Part shown: positions 20,152-55,687 of the stretch, piece after piece
Layout: every line of letters starts with the position of its first letter
Numbering within the stretch: the stretch's first letter is position 1
Assembly: GCA_027623195.1 (NCBI GenBank)
Contig: JAQBUT010000001.1
Coordinates: 1-64,000 of the forward strand
DNA: 64,000 nt
Origin: Chloroflexota bacterium
GTDB lineage: Bacteria; Chloroflexota; Dehalococcoidia; Lucifugimonadales; JADFKI01
Direction: 5' to 3'
The notes under the pieces: model-generated
Seen by the model: only the letters and a program-made list of their open reading frames with translations
Told to the model about the DNA's origin: nothing
The model's database searches: none
Translations under genes and position numbers: made by a program

Positions 20152-20652
20152 ATGATTCACGATGCACGCGACACCTTTGGGGGATACCTGGAGGATTTCA
20201 CACCCGGAGACATATATAAGCACTGGCCGGGCAAGACCATCACTGAGATGGACAACCACCTGTTCACGTTGCTGACCATGAACACGGCCCCACTGCATTT
20301 CGATGCAAATTACATGAAGGACCACCAGCACGGCCAGATTCTTGTGAACGGCACGCTGATATTCAGCCTTGTCGTTGGCATGAGCGTCCGCGATACGTCG
20401 GGTAAGGCCATCGCAAACCTGGAATACGAAACCGTCACCCACGACGGCCCGGTTTTCCACGGCGACACCATTTACGCCGAGAGCGAAATCCTCGAGGTCC
20501 GCGAGTCCCGCAGTCGCCCCGATAGGGGAATCGTTTACCTGGAGAGTCGGGGCATGAACCAGCGCGACGAAAAGGTCCTGACCTTGCGCCGACGCTTCCT
20601 GGTGCCCAAAAGGTCTTCCGTTGAAGGCAACGCTGTCGGACAGGGGGACTGA
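20152..20652 (+). CDS. MaoC-family (R)-hydratase/dehydratase
   Basis: GKTITEMDN..F..LTMN..PLH.D and PVFHGDT motifs. Confidence 0.9.
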   Translation: MIHDARDTFGGYLEDFTPGDIYKHWPGKTITEMDNHLFTLLTMNTAPLHFDANYMKDHQHGQILVNGTLIFSLVVGMSVRDTSGKAIANLEYETVTHDGPVFHGDTIYAESEILEVRESRSRPDRGIVYLESRGMNQRDEKVLTLRRRFLVPKRSSVEGNAVGQGD

Positions 20653-20658
20653 GCCTCA

Positions 20659-22023
20659 ATGAAAGAGGTGTCGTCCAGGTATACAGTTTCCATTTCGTAC
20701 GACCGTCGCCTTTATAAGCAGGATATCGCCGGTTCGATAGCCCACGCCTGCATGCTGGCCAAGCAAGGCATTATTTCGGACGACGAGGCCAAGAGTATCG
20801 TCGGCGGCCTCGAAGAAATACTTGTAGAAATAGAGGCCCAAAAGTTTCCGTGGCGTGAGGAACTCGAAGACATCCACATGAACGTGGAGCGTCGGCTCTT
20901 CGACAAGATCGGAGACACCGCTGGCAAGCTGCACACGGCCCGCTCCCGCAACGACCAGGTGGCGTTGGACATTCGCATGTTCACCAAGGACGCCATTTTG
21001 TCGATTCTGGACGGCCTGCAGGGTGTACGCGAAGCCCTCGTCAGTCTTGCGGAGACCAATCCCAAGACTGTTATGCCCGGCTACACACATCTCCAGCGAG
21101 CGCAGCCTCTGCTGTTTGCCCACCACATGCTGGCCTATTTCGAGATGTTGGGCCGCGACGCGCAACGCTTCCAGCAAGCTTACGAGAGAGCGGACGTGAT
21201 GCCTCTGGGAAGCGGAGCGTTAGCCGGAGTGCCGTACCCCCTGGACCGTGAGTTCGTTGCGAAGGAACTGGGCTTCAGCGCCATCTCGAAAAACAGCATG
21301 GACGCCGTGGCCGACAGGGACTTCCTCCTAGACTTTCAGATGGCGTCAGCGACCTGCATGATGCACTTCTCGCGCATGTCCGAAGAGCTTATTTTATGGT
21401 CGACTGACGAGTTCGCCTTCGTGCGGTTAAGCGACGATTACACCACTGGCAGCAGCATAATGCCCCAAAAGCGCAACCCCGACTTCGCAGAGTTGGCCCG
21501 TGGCAAAACTGGCCGAGTGTACGGACACCTGATGGGCCTGCTCACCCTGCTGAAGGGCTTGCCCATGACGTACAATCGGGATATGCAGGAAGACAAAGAG
21601 GGTTTCTTCGATTCCTTCGACACGCTCCTGGATACTCTGACCATTTTCGCGGACATGCTGCCAAAAATGAGCGTCAACGAAAGTGCTATGCGGGACGCTG
21701 CCCAAAACAGCTACCTGTTAGCCACCGACGTAGCGGACTACCTTGTGGGTAAGGGCATGCCATTCCGAGAGGCTCACGGCATCGTGAATCGCTTGTCTGA
21801 ATACGCCTTCGAGCAGAGCAAGTTCCTTCATCAGTTGAGTGTGTCAGAATACAAGAAATTCTCAGACGTTTTCGAAAAAGATGTACTTTCCATTAGCGTG
21901 GAGTCCTCAGTAGAGGCCAGGAACGTACCCGGTGGCACAAGCTTCGAACGAGTGGCCCAGGCCCTCAAAGAGGCCAGGGCTAGCTTGGCCGCAACGAGTC
22001 GCCGTGGCGACCAGGAGTCGTAA
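20659..22023 (+). CDS. argH: Argininosuccinate lyase
   Basis: [28 protein letters not shown] and YNRDMQEDK motifs. Confidence 0.96.
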
Positions 22024-31438: not shown

Positions 31439-32548
31439 ATGGAGCGCCCCATAATAAAGCCCGTAGGAACACCCGTGGAAGAACTGGACACCCCCGCACT
31501 GGTGTTAGACCTGGAGCAGTTGCGACAGAACATCGATAAGGTTCACTCTTTCTTTAAAGGGCAGACGGCGAAAATTCGCCCCCACGTCGAGTCGCACCGC
31601 TGTCCTACCATAGCCCACCAGCAGCTAGCCGCAGGCGGCACCGTTGGCGGCATCAGTGTAACAACGGTGGGTGAGGCAGAGGTGTTCGCCCAGGCAGGCA
31701 TCTCAGACATTGCCATTGCCAACGAAATCGTCACCTCTCAGAAGATCGCCAGGCTTTGTGCCTTGGCCCACCAGACTAAAATCACGGTGGCGGCAGATAA
31801 CGCGGAGAACGTTATGACGCTTTCCGAGGCTGCCCAGGCGGCAGGCGTTACGCTTAACGTTGTGGTCGATATCCACACCCGCCTGGAACGCTGCGGTGTA
31901 GAGCCCGGACAGGCTGCCGTTGACCTGGCCAAGATCATAGCTCAGTCCCAGGGTTTGCATTTCGCAGGCCTCATGGCGTACGAAGGGACCATCATAGCTG
32001 ACACACTTGACGAGCTAACGGCTCAGTCCAAGAAATGGATTCAGCCTGTGTTGGATACCCGTGAGATGGTGGAGGCGGCCGGTCTGGCGGTGGAGGTAGT
32101 GAGCGTTGGCGGCACGCACAACTACGAGATCGCGGCGACGATGTCTGGCGTTACAGAGGTGCCAGCAGGCAGCTACGCCCTGATGGATTACAGGTACAGC
32201 GCTACACGGCCCGGACTTCGCCCTGCAGCCAAGGTGATGGCCACGGTGACGAGTCTGCCAGAGCCGGGCAGGGCAATCCTGGACACGGGAAAGAAGGCCA
32301 CTGGAGACGACCTGGGCTTCCCTGCATTGGAGGATTTTCCGAATGTGCAGGTTGCCAGCCTAAGCGCCGAGCACGGCAACATCACATGGGATGAAGGCAA
32401 CAACCCAAATTTATCCATTGGTCAGAAGGTTTGGTATACGCCTTTGGAGATCGGCGCTACTGTTAACGTCTACGACTACATACAGGCTGTGCGCAACGGC
32501 AAACTGGAGTCGGTGTTGGGCATCTCGGCCCGCGGTCGCTATCGCTAG
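31439..32548 (+). CDS. DSD1/D-threonine aldolase-family fold-III PLP protein lacking the Schiff-base Lys
   Basis: LDTPALVLD, RPHVESHRC (K replaced by E), RCGV, GGT and SAEHG motifs. Confidence 0.85.
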   Translation: MERPIIKPVGTPVEELDTPALVLDLEQLRQNIDKVHSFFKGQTAKIRPHVESHRCPTIAHQQLAAGGTVGGISVTTVGEAEVFAQAGISDIAIANEIVTSQKIARLCALAHQTKITVAADNAENVMTLSEAAQAAGVTLNVVVDIHTRLERCGVEPGQAAVDLAKIIAQSQGLHFAGLMAYEGTIIADTLDELTAQSKKWIQPVLDTREMVEAAGLAVEVVSVGGTHNYEIAATMSGVTEVPAGSYALMDYRYSATRPGLRPAAKVMATVTSLPEPGRAILDTGKKATGDDLGFPALEDFPNVQVASLSAEHGNITWDEGNNPNLSIGQKVWYTPLEIGATVNVYDYIQAVRNGKLESVLGISARGRYR

Positions 32549-32625
32549 GCCCAACGAACTCATTCGATAAGCCATCAACCAAGAATCGACTTAAACTATG
32601 CCAATCCGCACGAAGGACAAAAAAT

Positions 32626-33726
32626 ATGGATAACTATAGGCCCCTGATGGGAACCGGTATCGCAGATCTGGATACGCCGTGTTTGATGGTGGACCTGGAC
32701 TCGCTAGAGCACAACTATGACCTAATAGCTAGGACTTACAGCGACACCGAGTGCAAGATGCGGACCCACACGAAGAACTTGAAAAGCCCATTGCTGGCCC
32801 ACATGCAGATCCGGGCAGGCGGTACTGTCGGCGGCGTATGCACCGCTAAGGTCTCCGAGGCTGAGGTCATGGTGGAGGGCGGCATTGACGACATTCTCAT
32901 TCCCAACCAGGTCGTGACCAGGGACAAGATTGTCCGGCTGTGCACTTTGGCCAAACGAGCCAAGATGATGGTGGCCGCCGACAACGCCGACAACATCCGG
33001 GAGATATCAGAGATAGCCCAGGAGCACGGTGTGAAGATAGGTATCGTCGTCGAGGTGGACACGCAGATGCACCGCGCCGGCATACGCAACACTCAGACCG
33101 GCGTAGACCTGGCTCGCGTGGCCACGGATGCCCCCGGCATCGACTTTCGCGGGGTGATGTGCCACCAGGCGGCCCAAGGCTCCCCGGACCGGGAGACGCG
33201 ATTCATCGAAGGACGTCGGCTTATTCAAACGGCGCTGGACGTTAGGGACGCCATAGTTGCCGACGGCATGCCTGTGGAGGTCGTTTCTGCGGGCGAGACA
33301 TGGACCTACGACCTGTGTGCAACCATGCCAGGAGTCACCGAGGTCGAGGGCGGGACGTATGCGCTGATGTCGCACGGCTACGGCTACATGGAGGACTTCG
33401 AGTACGCAGCCACGATACTCGGCACGGTCATTAGCACCCCAAGGCCCGGCGTCGCCATCGGGGACACAGGGTCGCGATGCCTGGGCTCACCCGGCGGCGT
33501 GCTACCCCAGTTGGTTGGCATTTCCAACGTAGGCGTGGACTCGCTGCAGGAGGAGCATATCGTCCTGCGCTCTGAGGGAGACATGCCGCTCAAGGTCGGC
33601 GACAAGTACCAGTTGATCTCAGGTCAGCAGGACATTATGGTCAACCGCTGGGACCAGTACATCGCCATGCGCAATAGCTCGGTGGAGGCCGTGTGGGATA
33701 TACCTGGTAGAGGTTGCCACAACTAA
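32626..33726 (+). CDS. DSD1/D-threonine aldolase-family PLP enzyme
   Basis: LDTPCLMVD, RTHTK (Lys retained), AKVSEAE and EEH motifs. Confidence 0.85.
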   Translation: MDNYRPLMGTGIADLDTPCLMVDLDSLEHNYDLIARTYSDTECKMRTHTKNLKSPLLAHMQIRAGGTVGGVCTAKVSEAEVMVEGGIDDILIPNQVVTRDKIVRLCTLAKRAKMMVAADNADNIREISEIAQEHGVKIGIVVEVDTQMHRAGIRNTQTGVDLARVATDAPGIDFRGVMCHQAAQGSPDRETRFIEGRRLIQTALDVRDAIVADGMPVEVVSAGETWTYDLCATMPGVTEVEGGTYALMSHGYGYMEDFEYAATILGTVISTPRPGVAIGDTGSRCLGSPGGVLPQLVGISNVGVDSLQEEHIVLRSEGDMPLKVGDKYQLISGQQDIMVNRWDQYIAMRNSSVEAVWDIPGRGCHN

Positions 33727-36214: not shown

Positions 36215-36631
36215 TTACGCCGGCCTGAACTTCACCAGCGTTACGTCAGCCGTAACGTCATCAAAGACCGCAGTCACTGGCATATCCACATGCACGTCCG
36301 CGATGGGGCAGTCCACCACGTTGGAGATCATACGGGGCCCTTCATCCAGTTGGATGATTGCGTAAATATACGGCACATCCTTCATAAACGCGCGGTTCAC
36401 CGACTGCTCAATGACCGTGAACGAATACACCCGGCCTACGCCTCCGGATTCCGACCACGACAGGTCCGCAGAAAGACATTTAGGGCACCTCTCTCTGGGA
36501 TAAAAGAATGTCGTCGAACAGCCATTGCACCGGGGCAACACCAATTTATGGCGCTTCGCAGCATCCCAGAAGGGTTGCGTAAATTCGGCATTGGCAGCCA
36601 CAGGTAACGGCTTCGTGTATTCGGAAGTCAT
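36215..36631 (-). CDS. Zn-ribbon/OB-fold (DUF35) thiolase partner protein
   Basis: PFW.AA, CNGC..FYPR..CPKC, G.VYSFTV and LDEGPRM motifs. Confidence 0.92.
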   Translation of the reverse strand: MTSEYTKPLPVAANAEFTQPFWDAAKRHKLVLPRCNGCSTTFFYPRERCPKCLSADLSWSESGGVGRVYSFTVIEQSVNRAFMKDVPYIYAIIQLDEGPRMISNVVDCPIADVHVDMPVTAVFDDVTADVTLVKFRPA

Positions 36632-36667
36632 TGCTTTGACCTTTAAGTTCTGAACGTCTTGCCTTGG

Positions 36668-37822
36668 TTAGAGTGAGTTCTCGGACCCGAGAACCAGCGA
36701 GCACATCTCGCTCGCCGTGCCGCCTCAACCATTCACCATGCATAAGTCGTTTTTAGGCACCTGCCGTCCGCCGGCCTTGCCCATGATCTGTCGAGCGCCT
36801 TCCACGACGTGACGGAACCCGCCTGCCAGTCCGGGCTGACCGCCGGAAAGCTGGCCGCCGTCAGTATTAACCGGAAAGGTCCCCTTGTATGTTGTATCGG
36901 TCGATTCGAAAAACGGACCAATCTCGCCCTTCTTAACGAACCCTGCATCTTCGAGGCACACGGCCACGAGAATGGTGTATCAGTCGTAGAATTCGGCAAA
37001 CTCTATGTCTGGGGGCGTGTAGCCTGACATCTCGAAGGCCCGGGCCGCTGATCCCGAAACCGGCGTGACGGTTATGTCGTCGCGCTGCCATATATTAGCC
37101 TCCGCCTGCTCCATTCCAACGCCCAAAACGTAAGCGGGCTTGTTTGGCAAAGACTTTGCCCTCTCAGGTGTCGTAATGATAAGCGCGGCCGCTCCGTCGC
37201 ATGGCATGACCGACTCCAAAAGCTTTAAAGGTCGATTGATGTACCGAGAGTCCAGCACGTCATCCACTGTAATGGTCTGCCCAAAGAAAACAGCATTTTC
37301 GTTAGTCAGGGCATTAAAGCGCTGGTTCACAGCCAGTTTGGCCATCTGCTCCTCGGTGGTGCCGTACTCGTGCATGTGCCGCTGGTACATCAGGCCATAG
37401 CCTGTGTTTGCCCCCGGCGCCATGCCGTACGGCTCCTCCCATTCCGAGCGCACGCCCGGCGCAGGAGTGCCCATACTGGCCCTGTATTCTCGAGAGTTGC
37501 CCATCACCACCAGAACGGTGTCGCACAGGCCGCCATTAATGGCCAGCGTAGCCGCTACGGTAGCAGTTGCCCCGCTGGCCCCTTGCATGGAAACGCCAGT
37601 TGCGAATCTCGGCTTGATGTCCAGGTATTCGGCCATAGCAGCCGGAGTCCCGTAGCCACCGTCGGTCACCAAGCCATTGATGTCGGCCTTGGTCAGCCCG
37701 GCATCCTCGATAGCCAGTTGGGCCGCCTCAGCACAAAGGCCGTACATAGTTCTGTCGGGCCGCACCCGTTTGGTTGGCACTTCGCCAATGCCGACTATTG
37801 CAGCTTTACCGCGCACTGTCAT
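36668..37822 (-). CDS. SCP-x-like thiolase-family protein, 384 aa, with two in-frame UGA codons (probable Sec281 and Sec366)
   Basis: One frame from ATG 37822 to TAA 36668 through TGA at 36980-82 (EFYD-U-YTIL) and 36725-27 (VNG-U-GG); NTDGGQLS motif; SECIS-like hairpins. Confidence 0.85.
36696..36712 (-). promoter_or_regulatory. SECIS-like hairpin after the second UGA
   Basis: AGCGAG[AUGUG]CUCGCU; loop 18 nt from the UGA. Confidence 0.55.
36947..36973 (-). promoter_or_regulatory. SECIS-like hairpin after the first UGA
   Basis: AUUCUCGUGGC[CGUGU]GCCUCGAAGAU; loop 17 nt from the UGA with G at loop position 2 followed by U. Confidence 0.65.
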
Positions 37823-37995: not shown

Positions 37996-39156
37996 ATGAG
38001 CTTCTTCCCACTAACCCAGGAGCAACAGGACTGGAAAGACCGTGCCGCCGCGATTGCAGACAAGGAGCTTGCGCCTCGCGCAGAGCAGACCGACAGAGAA
38101 CGCAAGTACCCCAGAGAATCGCTGGACGCACTAAGGGACGCCGGGTTCTGGGCGTTGCGAGTGGATAAACAGTACGGAGGCCAGGGGGCCGACCTTTTGA
38201 GCACGGTGCTGGTCGTGGAAGAGCTAGCCAAGCGGTGCCCGTCCACAGCCATGTGCTACAAGATGCACCTTGAGGCGTCAGAGGTAATCAACCGCATGCC
38301 GACGGATTACCAGGTGGAGAACTTCGTGAAGCCCATGGCCAGGGGCGAGGTCTTCACCACCGTGGCAGGCTCAGAGACCTGGAGAGACGGCGACAACTGG
38401 ACCACCAGCCGAGAGTTCTCGGTCGCCAATAAAGTACCGGGCGGCTACAAGCTTAACAACGTACGCAAGTCCTACGTCACGTCATCGGAGCACGCCACTC
38501 ATTACTTCTTCCTGTGCCGCATGAGCGAAGAGGCTACCGCTGACCAGACTAGCCTTCTATTCGTGGAGCGCGACAAGATCGAGTGGGAGCTTCTAGAGGA
38601 ATGGAACGGCCTGGGACTACGAGGTAACGCCAGCTCCCCCATGCGCTTCAACGGGGTTGTGCCGGAAGAGAACAGAATTGGCGGCGAGAACACTGGTATG
38701 GCTGAGGCCGGTGGCGTATTCGTGCCGGTGCTCGGCCTGACCTACGCGGCCGCCTATCTGGGCACGGGCTCAGGCGCATTCGACCTAGCTAAACTGGAGG
38801 GCGACCGCAGATTTGCCAGCGGCTCCCGACGCATGGACGCGCCGGTGAATCAGCGACGCATGGCAGAGCTATCAGTTCAGATCGAAGCCGCCCAGACCAT
38901 GCTGCACGCCGCAGCCGCTACGTTCGACGCGGGCAAACTGGGATCGCCGCTGCCCATAATGCAGGCCAAGGTGCTCTGCTCTGAGACGGCGGTGAACGTA
39001 ACGCAGGAACTCATGACCATGTTCGGCGGCACGGCCTTCGCAGGACGCATGCCCATGGAGCGGTACTTCCGCGACGCCCGCGCAGGCATGATTATGGCGC
39101 TGCCAAACGACGGGACCTACGACACCATCTCGAACCTGCTGTTCCCAGCGAAGTAA
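37996..39156 (+). CDS. Acyl-CoA dehydrogenase-family flavoprotein (atypical, hydroxylase-like)
   Basis: YGG.G, W.GLGLRGN.S and ERYFRDARA motifs; no IxEG motif. Confidence 0.85.
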   Translation: MSFFPLTQEQQDWKDRAAAIADKELAPRAEQTDRERKYPRESLDALRDAGFWALRVDKQYGGQGADLLSTVLVVEELAKRCPSTAMCYKMHLEASEVINRMPTDYQVENFVKPMARGEVFTTVAGSETWRDGDNWTTSREFSVANKVPGGYKLNNVRKSYVTSSEHATHYFFLCRMSEEATADQTSLLFVERDKIEWELLEEWNGLGLRGNASSPMRFNGVVPEENRIGGENTGMAEAGGVFVPVLGLTYAAAYLGTGSGAFDLAKLEGDRRFASGSRRMDAPVNQRRMAELSVQIEAAQTMLHAAAATFDAGKLGSPLPIMQAKVLCSETAVNVTQELMTMFGGTAFAGRMPMERYFRDARAGMIMALPNDGTYDTISNLLFPAK

Positions 39157-39259
39157 GAGTGCGCGGGAAAGGGAGATCTTCCCGCAACTCGTTTCCACGT
39201 AAGACACAGATAAGCGAACCCCTCTCAGTGTGCAAAAAGGGGTTCAGAAATTACATGTC

Positions 39260-40297
39260 TCAATGAGCCTTGAGGATCGACTTGAACGATTGGGCCGTGA
39301 ACTCCAACCACCGGGACGCATCTGTGCGGTGGTCATCTTGGCGCTCATCTGTCTTTCCAAATACCCACATGGCATTTGACAGTTGCCGGGCAGCTATAAA
39401 TATGTCCAGATATTCCAACTGTTCCACTGGAATGGGTCGATGCCTGGTGTAGCCACGAAATAGGTCGTCGACCAGGGTAGGGTGGCCGTTCTGCAAAAGG
39501 CAAACGGCTATGTCGTAAATCTTGTGGCCAAAAGCGCTGTCGTCAAAGTCAATTACCCTGGTCTCATTGGCTGAAAACAGGATATTCCCCGTGTGAAGGT
39601 CCGCGTGAATCAGCCCGAAAACATCCGGCCCGAACCCTAATTCTTCCATGGCCTGCCGGACCCTCTCTCCCATATCGTGGAAAAGTCGGGCGTAGGGCGA
39701 GGGAAGCGAAGACCATGTTTCCTGCGGACTCACGACGAATCCCGCACTATCCCCCAAAAGTCCATCCCAGTCCAGTCGGCGTCTGGTGAACGCAGGGGAG
39801 GGCGACCAGCCTTCCGCGTGGCTATGCAATTGCCCCATGACCTCTCCAATGGCCGTCAGGTGGGTGGGACTGGTTTTCTGGTACGCCCTGCCATTCATCC
39901 AGCGCAACAATGAACAAACGCGCGGCTCTGGAACATCCGGCGATGACGCGGTGGTCATAAGGTCACCCGACAAGGTGGGTACTGGCTCCGGAACGGCCAA
40001 ATCAATGTCACGACGCAATGCATCCAGCCATTCCAGCTCTGAGGCGATGGAAGCGGCAGACTGATAGCCGGGCCCGTGAAGCTTCAGCAGATACCGCCCC
40101 TGCACGAACCGACCTGCCTCAGCCTTGCCACCGGATCGGTCATTCACGCTTACCCGAAACGTTGCGTTCTCGTGAGACTTGATTAGCCTTACGCTCGCGC
40201 CCTTCAGTCCGTACGACTTCAGTGCTGTCTTGGCCAGAGTGTGCAGGCGTCGCACCTTACCGGTGTGAGTCAGGTTCTCAAAAGGTACTCTGGCCAA
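39260..40297 (-). CDS. APH/type II homoserine kinase-like phosphotransferase
   Basis: ENATFRV, LIHADLH.GN and IDFDD motifs. Confidence 0.88.
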   Translation of the reverse strand: MARVPFENLTHTGKVRRLHTLAKTALKSYGLKGASVRLIKSHENATFRVSVNDRSGGKAEAGRFVQGRYLLKLHGPGYQSAASIASELEWLDALRRDIDLAVPEPVPTLSGDLMTTASSPDVPEPRVCSLLRWMNGRAYQKTSPTHLTAIGEVMGQLHSHAEGWSPSPAFTRRRLDWDGLLGDSAGFVVSPQETWSSLPSPYARLFHDMGERVRQAMEELGFGPDVFGLIHADLHTGNILFSANETRVIDFDDSAFGHKIYDIAVCLLQNGHPTLVDDLFRGYTRHRPIPVEQLEYLDIFIAARQLSNAMWVFGKTDERQDDHRTDASRWLEFTAQSFKSILKAH

Positions 40298-55353: not shown

Positions 55354-55569
55354 AGTAAACCAACCTTTTTGTTACAAGGTGCATAAGGCATTTTAGTTGT
55401 TACACCAAATCATCTAAATACTGCCCCGCATGTAATATAGACGACTGTTGGTCGAATTTTGTTCCCGTTATCACCCTGGGGAGGCATTCATTGCCTTTGC
55501 ATGGCTTCGTTTCGTTGACTTTTCATGGGGCGTGGGATATTCTGAGTGCACTAACAAATGAATAAAATC

Positions 55570-55668
55570 GCGAGGTAGGGGAGCTTGGAACCGCCAGGCT
55601 GAGAGGCACCGACAATTCGGTGCGACCCCTTGCACCTGACCTGGGTAATGCCAGCGCAGGGACTTACC
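55570..55668 (+). promoter_or_regulatory. TPP riboswitch
   Basis: AGGGGAGC..GCTGAGA..GACCC..ACCTGA.CTGGGTAATGCCAGCGCAGGGA directly upstream of thiG. Confidence 0.95.
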
Positions 55669-55687
55669 ATACAAATGTTGTGTACAG

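Follow-up and report, generated by a model that had tools for sequence, protein, structure and literature searches.

The closest characterised relative of the gene treated here is CtSal, a retro-aldolase of Comamonas testosteroni that cleaves 22-hydroxy bile-acid coenzyme A (CoA) esters (structure 9MYR; PMC12329534). The enzyme described there is bound to the DUF35 domain of its hydratase, Shy, and has a glycine in the place of the thiolase nucleophile and a catalytic pair, Tyr302 and Cys304, set in a Y-D-C-Y motif; activity is lost in the variants C304A, C304S and C304H, the thiolate is proposed to owe its stability to Gln347 and Gln352, and the backbone NH of Gly391 together with the side chain of Gln161 makes up the oxyanion hole (PMC12329534). 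Two further proteins of this fold without the nucleophilic cysteine are TcLtp2, the actinobacterial aldolase of the steroid C3 side chain that associates with the DUF35 protein ChsH2 (6OK1), and TbSLP, the SCP2-thiolase-like protein of Trypanosoma brucei (5AB4-5AB7), proposed to be an aldolase by the CtSal authors (PMC12329534). Here we describe a thiolase-fold gene with two in-frame UGA codons, and the DUF35 gene that follows it, on a stretch of 64,000 nucleotides from a Chloroflexota genome (GCA_027623195.1, contig JAQBUT010000001.1, positions 1 to 64,000 of the forward strand; hereafter the window). Our reading, to which we assign a probability of roughly 85%, is that the two genes form an operon in which a selenocysteine (Sec)-decoded enzyme of the Sal/SLP branch precedes a small partner protein with a zinc ribbon and an oligonucleotide/oligosaccharide-binding (OB) fold.

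One reading frame with two conserved TGA codons

The minus-strand frame at 36668..37822 comprises 384 codons followed by TAA at 36668-36670, and TGA occurs within it at two codons only: codon 281 (UGA-1; 36980..36982, minus strand), a predicted Sec in Y279-D280-U281-Y282, and codon 366 (UGA-2; 36725..36727, minus strand), a predicted Sec in N-G-U-G-G. A list of open reading frames (ORFs) made with translation table 11 cuts the gene into 36980-37822 (280 aa) and 36725-36967 (80 aa). An earlier interpretation of the DNA, made from its letters alone and called here the sequence-only reading, had joined these pieces into one 384-residue protein ending at TAA; when re-read from the DNA the frame came out the same, and the flanking peptides AEFYD-U-YTILVAVCLEDAGF and LCMVNG-U-GGTASEMCSLVL agree with it exactly. 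The Pfam domain Thiolase_C_1 spans residues 239-379 of the read-through protein, both TGAs included (7.9e-46), and matches in the PDB and by Foldseek, given below, place the protein with the Sal/SLP-like enzymes. On the same strand, 36 nt downstream, lies the partner gene (36215..36631, minus strand), whose 138-aa product carries the Pfam domains zf-ChsH2 (3e-13) and OB_ChsH2_C (7.6e-21), that is, a CxxC...CxxC zinc ribbon and an OB fold, and is the DUF35 protein that the sequence-only reading had named as partner.

A search for orthologues in all six frames covered 41 related genomes. Five of these, the source genome included, have both TGAs, the other four genes being 94, 77, 60 and 60% identical, and a sixth has two copies, each with a single TGA. 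In a sample of 401 genomes from the phylum one more genome came to light, whose four copies have 0, 1, 1 and 2 TGAs, and a search of species-representative genomes with the clade alignment added 79 loci, among which the Sec-bearing ones are all labelled Dehalococcoidia, Chloroflexota/Chloroflexi or SAR202. Setting aside one frameshifted gene from the total of 97, 96 genes could be compared at columns 281 and 366, where the combinations are U,U (18 genes), C,U (18), C,N (38), C,T (15), S,S (6) and A,N (1). Codon 366 is thus TGA in 36 of the 96 genes and codon 281 in 18, all of which also have TGA at 366; there is no gene among the 96 with U at 281 and another residue at 366. The sequence-only reading had placed the first TGA on a conserved Cys of an (H/Y)DCF motif, and column 281, the cysteine of (H/Y)DC(F/Y), is indeed Cys in 71/96 homologues, a count inflated by the fact that one of the two patterns in the species-representative search had Cys at this position. 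Residues beyond the UGAs, such as Y282, T283, E291, D292, G368 and S371, are invariant in the clade alignment. Given that TGA stands in the same two columns of orthologues down to 55% identity, the in-frame TGA pattern is far above chance, and 36668-37822 is one intact gene.

A quick maximum-likelihood tree with SH-aLRT (Shimodaira-Hasegawa-like approximate likelihood-ratio test) support only was calculated from 93 family members and seven outgroup paralogues, the frameshifted gene and three partial ones being excluded. Every one of the 36 genes with Sec falls in one group (A; SH-aLRT 91), together with the S,S clade and three nested genes without Sec, and the other (B; 95*) contains only C,N and C,T forms, the Comamonas sequences included; the clade with the Comamonas sequences stands as sister to the Sec clade. 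Within the core clade (100*) no fewer than five changes are required to account for the U,U label, which speaks for repeated exchange of Cys and Sec at position 281.

Tandem modules of a thiolase-like and a DUF35 gene were seen in several of the related genomes: at L050/L051 (G085:C6:336594-339510) a U,U gene precedes an A,N paralogue that is 62% identical to it, and sub-functionalisation is likely, and further tandem modules are found at L064, L066 and L083. The second copy at L064 is cut at about 281 aa and the copy at L083 ends within the C-terminal domain; these cut copies are probably further Sec genes.

The source genome (3.0 Mb, 65 contigs, 87% complete) encodes the machinery for Sec insertion. 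All four of selA, selB, selC and selD, on which the sequence-only reading depended, are present: a tRNA-Sec (selC) scoring 63.4 bits against a cut-off of 47 and called tRNA-SeC with anticodon tca by ARAGORN, SelA (6e-136), a SelB wing domain in a 624-aa frame (1.4e-21) and selD (3.1e-115; G000:C46:6726-7649). The selD gene is itself of the Sec type, with one in-frame TGA in its N-terminal loop, which reads ...LASCAGUASKFSP.... TGA is an ordinary stop codon in this genome, ending 350 of the 1775 ORFs that reach 250 aa as well as 3 of the 17 annotated window genes around the locus, and three paralogues of the enzyme in the same genome have no internal TGA.

Contigs from a second study could be compared at both sites. 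They come from three runs and differ from the window at 2-13 positions per contig, none of them at the TGAs, in a comparison made on assembled contigs rather than raw reads, which rare variants may escape; in one divergent strain contig the codon after the TGA is changed synonymously and the TGA is kept. The contigs of the three independent runs (X3-X5) break and overlap at 36945-36976, beside UGA-1, and a divergent minor contig covers 36947-37079; these breaks probably reflect strain variation that confuses the assemblers. Sequencing error, an objection that the sequence-only reading had foreseen, finds no support in these contigs. An explanation by error, by pseudogene formation or by genome-wide reassignment of TGA could appeal to gene callers, which cut the gene at its TGAs, but both TGA columns persist across many assemblies, in genes that are 55-95% identical. 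Because the TGAs are conserved, the independent contigs agree, and TGA is a normal stop that the paralogues do not carry in frame, we regard all three explanations as excluded for practical purposes.

Candidate RNA elements following the two UGA codons

Each UGA is followed by a candidate Sec insertion sequence (SECIS) within the coding region. SECIS 2 is a 9-bp hairpin with the loop AGAUG (36695..36717, minus strand) that starts 8 nt past UGA-2. Directly after it and before the stop codon lies an additional small hairpin of 7 bp with the loop GGUC (36677..36694, minus strand); it covers the codons for L-G-S-E-N, and a self-complementary choice of codons is seen there in several orthologues, not in all (columns 34-52). 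In the window, the 61-nt stretch after UGA-2 folds at -24.8 kcal/mol (z -2.09). For comparison across genes, the 48 nt downstream of each site were set against 150 redraws of synonymous codons for the same peptide. At site 366 the Sec forms have a mean z of -1.79, and 15 of their 30 distinct sequences reach the 5% level or better, compared with 0/39 of the Asn forms, 0/15 of the Thr forms and 2/6 of the Ser forms (Mann-Whitney p 6e-10, a value overstated since related sequences are not independent). The hairpin after UGA-2 is specific to Sec forms. One fixed register after UGA-2 pairs 67% of cells (slid controls, 27-52%) and has three pairs in which both bases have changed, and RNAalifold finds no consensus across 32 sequences; on a by-eye reading, the incomplete pairing and the missing consensus arise because the hairpin registers differ between sub-clades.

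The candidate after UGA-1, SECIS 1, is a weak, interrupted hairpin of eight pairs with the loop CGUGU (36947..36973, minus strand), starting 7 nt past the codon and occupying alignment columns 10-36, where column 1 is the U of UGA; RNAalifold gives it -5.17 kcal/mol and two compensatory pairs. Its cells are paired in 97.1% of cases against 32-49% with slid partners, and 0/500 shuffles reach its pairing or covariation score, figures obtained on the same sequences from which the structure was derived. All eight pairs are kept in 14 of 17 Sec forms, which average 7.76 pairs; the average is 5.38 for 13 near relatives lacking Sec, although in some of these the same peptide is written in different synonymous codons. 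Codons 282-291 are the window of strongest synonymous constraint in the 17 U,U genes analysed (rank 1/231; identity 0.73 against a gene mean of 0.44), whereas the same codons rank 25/98 in 53 C,N/T genes. These observations point to an RNA element after UGA-1 despite the missing energy signal: the mean z at site 281 is +0.24, 0/17 sequences beat their synonymous redraws, and the window itself stands at z +0.49, which is real evidence against a strong SECIS after UGA-1.

Could the first UGA then be a leaky or regulatory stop, with only UGA-2 efficiently decoded as Sec and a 280-residue fragment as the main product? The lack of a stable hairpin after UGA-1 is what such a proposal has in its favour, but the fragment would be without the C-terminal thiolase half and the majority of the catalytic residues; every one of the 18 U,U genes conserves the frame and the residues beyond UGA-1, the codon is followed by a covarying hairpin and by the window where synonymous constraint in the gene is highest, and the aligned residue of homologues is an essential catalytic cysteine. 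We consider the leaky-stop proposal very improbable. It is highly probable, instead, that both UGAs are decoded as Sec, an event we infer from these lines of evidence together; SelA, SelB, SelD and tRNA-Sec would do so guided by the coding-sequence hairpins just after each codon. In its in-frame UGA codons, its downstream hairpins within the coding region and its exchange of Sec and Cys at 281 the gene resembles known bacterial selenoprotein families, and like them it comes from a host class rich in selenoproteins: among the genomes listed in BSepDB are Dehalococcoidia metagenome-assembled genomes (MAGs) with 46-49 selenoprotein genes. It differs from those families in not being evidently redox-related, in having two predicted Sec residues in one active site, and in having no Cys homologues at 366.

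Active-site residues and candidate chemistry

The best PDB match of the read-through protein is 9myr_A (phmmer, 1.2e-80; chain numbering in this alignment equals the numbering of the paper plus 24), and the same structure is the top Foldseek match of an AlphaFold model (predicted local distance difference test, pLDDT, 81.2; predicted template-modelling score, pTM, 0.87), with an E value of 3e-40, a TM score of 0.85 and about 38% identity. Tyr302 of CtSal corresponds to the invariant Tyr279, Cys304 to U281 (Cys or Sec in the clade), Gln347 and Gln352 to the invariant Gln324 and Gln329, and Thr389-Gly390-Gly391 to U366-Gly367-Gly368, of which Gly368 is invariant; the pantetheine-binding Asn162 corresponds to the conserved Asn139, and Gln161 to Ala138. 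The protein therefore shares with CtSal the absence of a nucleophilic cysteine, the Y-D-C/U-Y motif, the two activating glutamines, the oxyanion-hole glycine, the pantetheine-binding asparagine and a DUF35 partner, and differs in the predicted Sec281 for Cys304 and Sec366 for Thr389, and in Ala138. By this alignment, the predicted Sec281 replaces a cysteine that mutagenesis proved essential in CtSal. The partners also differ, as DUF35 is a free-standing protein of 138 aa here and the tail of a MaoC hydratase in the CtSal system.

Shared features also connect the protein with TcLtp2 (1.5e-41), which has the thiolase fold, the DUF35 partner and no nucleophilic cysteine, and whose catalytic Tyr294 aligns with Tyr279; Ltp2, however, has YDHF and a second tyrosine (Tyr344) as acid, where the present protein has a predicted Sec and no counterpart of Tyr344. 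TbSLP shares the lack of the nucleophile and has a YDCF motif, but it is far more distant (5.9e-17), and has neither Sec nor a known DUF35 partner. With the SCP2-thiolases (HDCF) and the classical thiolases (CxS, NEAF, GHP and CxGGG) the protein has the fold in common, residue 281 lying at the position of the HDCF cysteine and residue 366 at that of the CxG cysteine (for the roles of these motifs see PMC7682436), and it lacks their nucleophilic cysteine, the Asn or His of NEAF/HDCF and the His of GHP.

These equivalences come from a comparison within the genome, whose own classical thiolase carries all four fingerprints. An hhalign profile comparison of the clade with this protein is collinear over 305 columns and sets the nucleophilic Cys of the CxS motif against Gly82, N-E-A-F against Y-D-U-Y (with Asn at Tyr279), the His of GHP against Gln329, and the Cys of CxGGG against U366. 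The last of these agrees with the position of U366 two residues N-terminal of the oxyanion-hole glycine, Gly368. The sequence-only reading had put the second TGA in the CxGGG loop, and it is aligned with precisely that Cys, at an hhalign probability of 39%; its observation that the N-terminal nucleophile is missing also holds, with Gly82 in that place and G, A or S in the column throughout the clade. Its label of "thiolase" fits the fold and not the likely chemistry, the nearest characterised relative being a retro-aldolase, and since three of the four classical catalytic residues are absent we do not file the protein as a thiolase. The predicted Sec366 would then occupy the classical acid/base position that the Sal, Ltp2, SLP and SCP2 branches gave up. 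The HDCF and CxG cysteines are said to be spatially equivalent, a finding attributed to Harijan et al. in 2013.

What the enzyme does can be sketched by analogy with CtSal. By homology with solved complexes, an enzyme dimer flanked by DUF35 subunits would bind an acyl-CoA. An acyl-enzyme route is improbable because the thiolase nucleophile is missing. Tyr279 would take the proton of the β-hydroxyl, upon which the C-C bond would break, as in CtSal; the backbone NH of Gly368 would hold the thioester enolate so formed, and the α-carbon would receive its proton from residue 281, a selenol or selenolate where CtSal has a thiol, positioned by Gln324 and Gln329. For Sec366, placed in the same pocket, the most likely role would be as a proton relay with residue 281 or as its reversible partner in a Se-Se or Se-S bond. 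To C-C lyase chemistry of this Sal or SLP type we give about even odds. The substrate would by the same analogy be a CoA thioester, and it surely differs from that of CtSal, because the relatives are, by their record labels, marine MAGs of the Dehalococcoidia/SAR202 type.

The pairing of the two predicted Sec residues invites other explanations. One is a true thiolase with a selenium nucleophile, in which one Sec, probably 366, forms an acyl-selenoester that CoA resolves, the other Sec serves as acid/base and the N-terminal cysteine has been replaced. U366 on the classical CxG cysteine and residue 281 on the HDCF cysteine of the SCP2-thiolases would give two chalcogens in a thiolase-like arrangement, Sec281 occurs only together with Sec366, and real thiolases pair with DUF35 too (7pxp and 6esq are among the matches); yet both Sec residues would lie at the acid/base site, the nucleophile site being Gly82, and the residues of the first oxyanion hole, the His of GHP and the Asn of NEAF, are Gln329 and Tyr279, so that we rate this thiolase as quite improbable. 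A selenium-containing thiolase of Clostridium kluyveri was reportedly described by Hartmanis and Stadtman in 1982, with the selenium present as selenomethionine.

Another possibility is that the two residues form a reversible diselenide, or a selenenylsulfide between Cys281 and Sec366 in the C,U forms, as a redox switch or for redox-dependent chemistry. SelL is a diselenide protein. The co-occurrence of states as C,U or U,U and never as U281 with another residue at 366 suits such a pair, as does the placement of both residues, by homology, in one active-site pocket, and a Sec that no Cys homologue matches hints at a need for some property particular to selenium; no gene for a redox partner or cofactor is conserved beside the operon, however, and the known chemistry of the family is not redox, which makes a redox pair distinctly unlikely. 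A bolder reading would have Sec366 as a catalytic residue for which only selenium serves, re-invented at the abandoned acid/base position of the thiolase fold without Cys-using relatives. It would touch residue 281 directly, the two forming a Se-Se or Se-S pair, and would give a carbon-carbon bond enzyme a chemistry beyond the reach of sulfur (such as an acyl-selenoester or diselenide gating). We hold this reading to be unlikely as well; were it true, it would define a class of selenoenzymes outside redox metabolism that is abundant in the Dehalococcoidia/SAR202 of the ocean.

A number of results weigh against the reading of the locus as a Sec-decoded operon of Sal/SLP type. They include those already given for the RNA, namely the absence of a consensus after UGA-2, the absent energy signal after UGA-1 and the scoring of SECIS 1 on the sequences that yielded it; there is also no Rfam match on the gene at gathering thresholds, a tRNA and a thiamine pyrophosphate (TPP) riboswitch being the only ones in the whole window. 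The sequence-only reading had asked whether homologues keep UGA or Cys at both columns; U and Cys do exchange at 281, but at 366 the counterparts of UGA are Asn (39), Thr (15) and Ser (6), with Cys in 0/96 genes, a pattern atypical of selenoproteins. Nor is there Cys at 366 in any of the Gln/Gln-type library representatives, and the two that have it among the best 150 representatives of a library of 1.84 billion proteins both belong to a His-bearing subfamily. Asn stands at 366 in three genes nested within the Sec clade, and one of them is the Ala281/Asn366 gene in tandem with a U,U copy; neither Sec can therefore be indispensable to the fold. The tree that defines this nesting has the limits stated for it, the hhalign probability of 39% is low, and Gln161, one half of the oxyanion hole of CtSal, is not conserved. 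No neighbour other than the DUF35 gene is conserved across the 18 U,U loci, and there is no MaoC-type hydratase gene adjacent to the enzyme gene in the window or among 102 neighbouring ORFs of those loci, so that the surroundings point to no particular substrate.

Genomic surroundings, database records and significance

Every one of the 18 U,U loci has a DUF35 gene beside the enzyme gene; at 15 of them it follows immediately, on the same strand. The domain scan of the neighbourhoods covered 102 of 143 listed ORFs, near-copy loci being omitted, and returned only sporadic companions: CoA-transferase III at two of the 18 loci, an acyl-CoA dehydrogenase (ACAD) at one, short-chain dehydrogenase/reductase (SDR) at two, DegV at three, VWA at three and DUF885 at two. 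The immediate neighbours in the window are a divergent ACAD gene, an APH-type kinase gene, an SDR gene and unrelated genes, and the nearest MaoC-type gene is 16 kb off, unlike the arrangement in the CtSal system, where the hydratase carries the DUF35 domain. The ACAD gene, divergent from the Sec gene, and the convergent APH-type phosphotransferase gene that comes after it occupy 37996-40297; the pairing resembles ACAD10/11-type fusions, and it is not conserved near the orthologues (ACAD at 1/18 U,U loci).

Elsewhere in the window, 12 of 22 mechanically generated read-through candidates were scanned, and no domain spanning a TGA was found in them. The frame at 20152-22020 (plus strand) was considered as a selenoprotein and rejected: a single TGA is all that separates, within one frame, a MaoC/mesaconyl-CoA-hydratase-like gene (166 aa) from one for argininosuccinate lyase, and the two read as distinct genes with a normal stop. 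The TPP riboswitch is at 55567-55679 (plus strand; 60.2 bits against a gathering score of 54.3). At 31439-33726 (plus strand) are two adjacent paralogous genes with Ala_racemase_N and D-serine-dehydratase-like domains, adjoined by an amidohydrolase gene on the opposite strand.

Truncation pervades the public records. An exact look-up places the 280-aa fragment in a 19-member database cluster named acetyl-CoA acetyltransferase, database clusters of 367-369 aa that end at UGA-2 bear the name "thiolase family protein [Dehalococcoidia bacterium]", and among the best 150 library representatives at least seven end precisely at one or the other TGA column. As the sequence-only reading had supposed, the gene is invisible to standard gene callers, and the public databases contain truncated products only. 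Of the NCBIfam models, 19 of thiolase type match, all under their cut-offs (the best with 295.8 bits against 421), and no selenoprotein model does. We found no published report of a Sec-containing protein of the thiolase fold, in a search that did not extend to the 111-family list of BSepDB, where it may stand under another name; the words thiolase, lipid-transfer and acetyltransferase do not occur in the main texts of PMC13326102, PMC13188914, PMC12013277 and PMC9312934. The authors of deep-Sep acknowledge a blind spot for selenoproteins without Cys homologues.

Nearly all selenoenzymes known to us use Sec for redox chemistry. The present gene would have Sec where a C-C lyase has an acid/base cysteine proved essential by experiment, and another Sec at a classical thiolase catalytic position for which there are no Cys-using relatives, and the family may thus offer a natural test of what selenium contributes to proton-transfer or acyl-transfer catalysis. 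It exposes the blind spot of methods that detect selenoproteins by Sec/Cys pairs. Since the public records end at 280 or 367-369 residues, metabolic reconstructions of abundant marine bacteria carry broken, and probably misnamed, versions of this enzyme.

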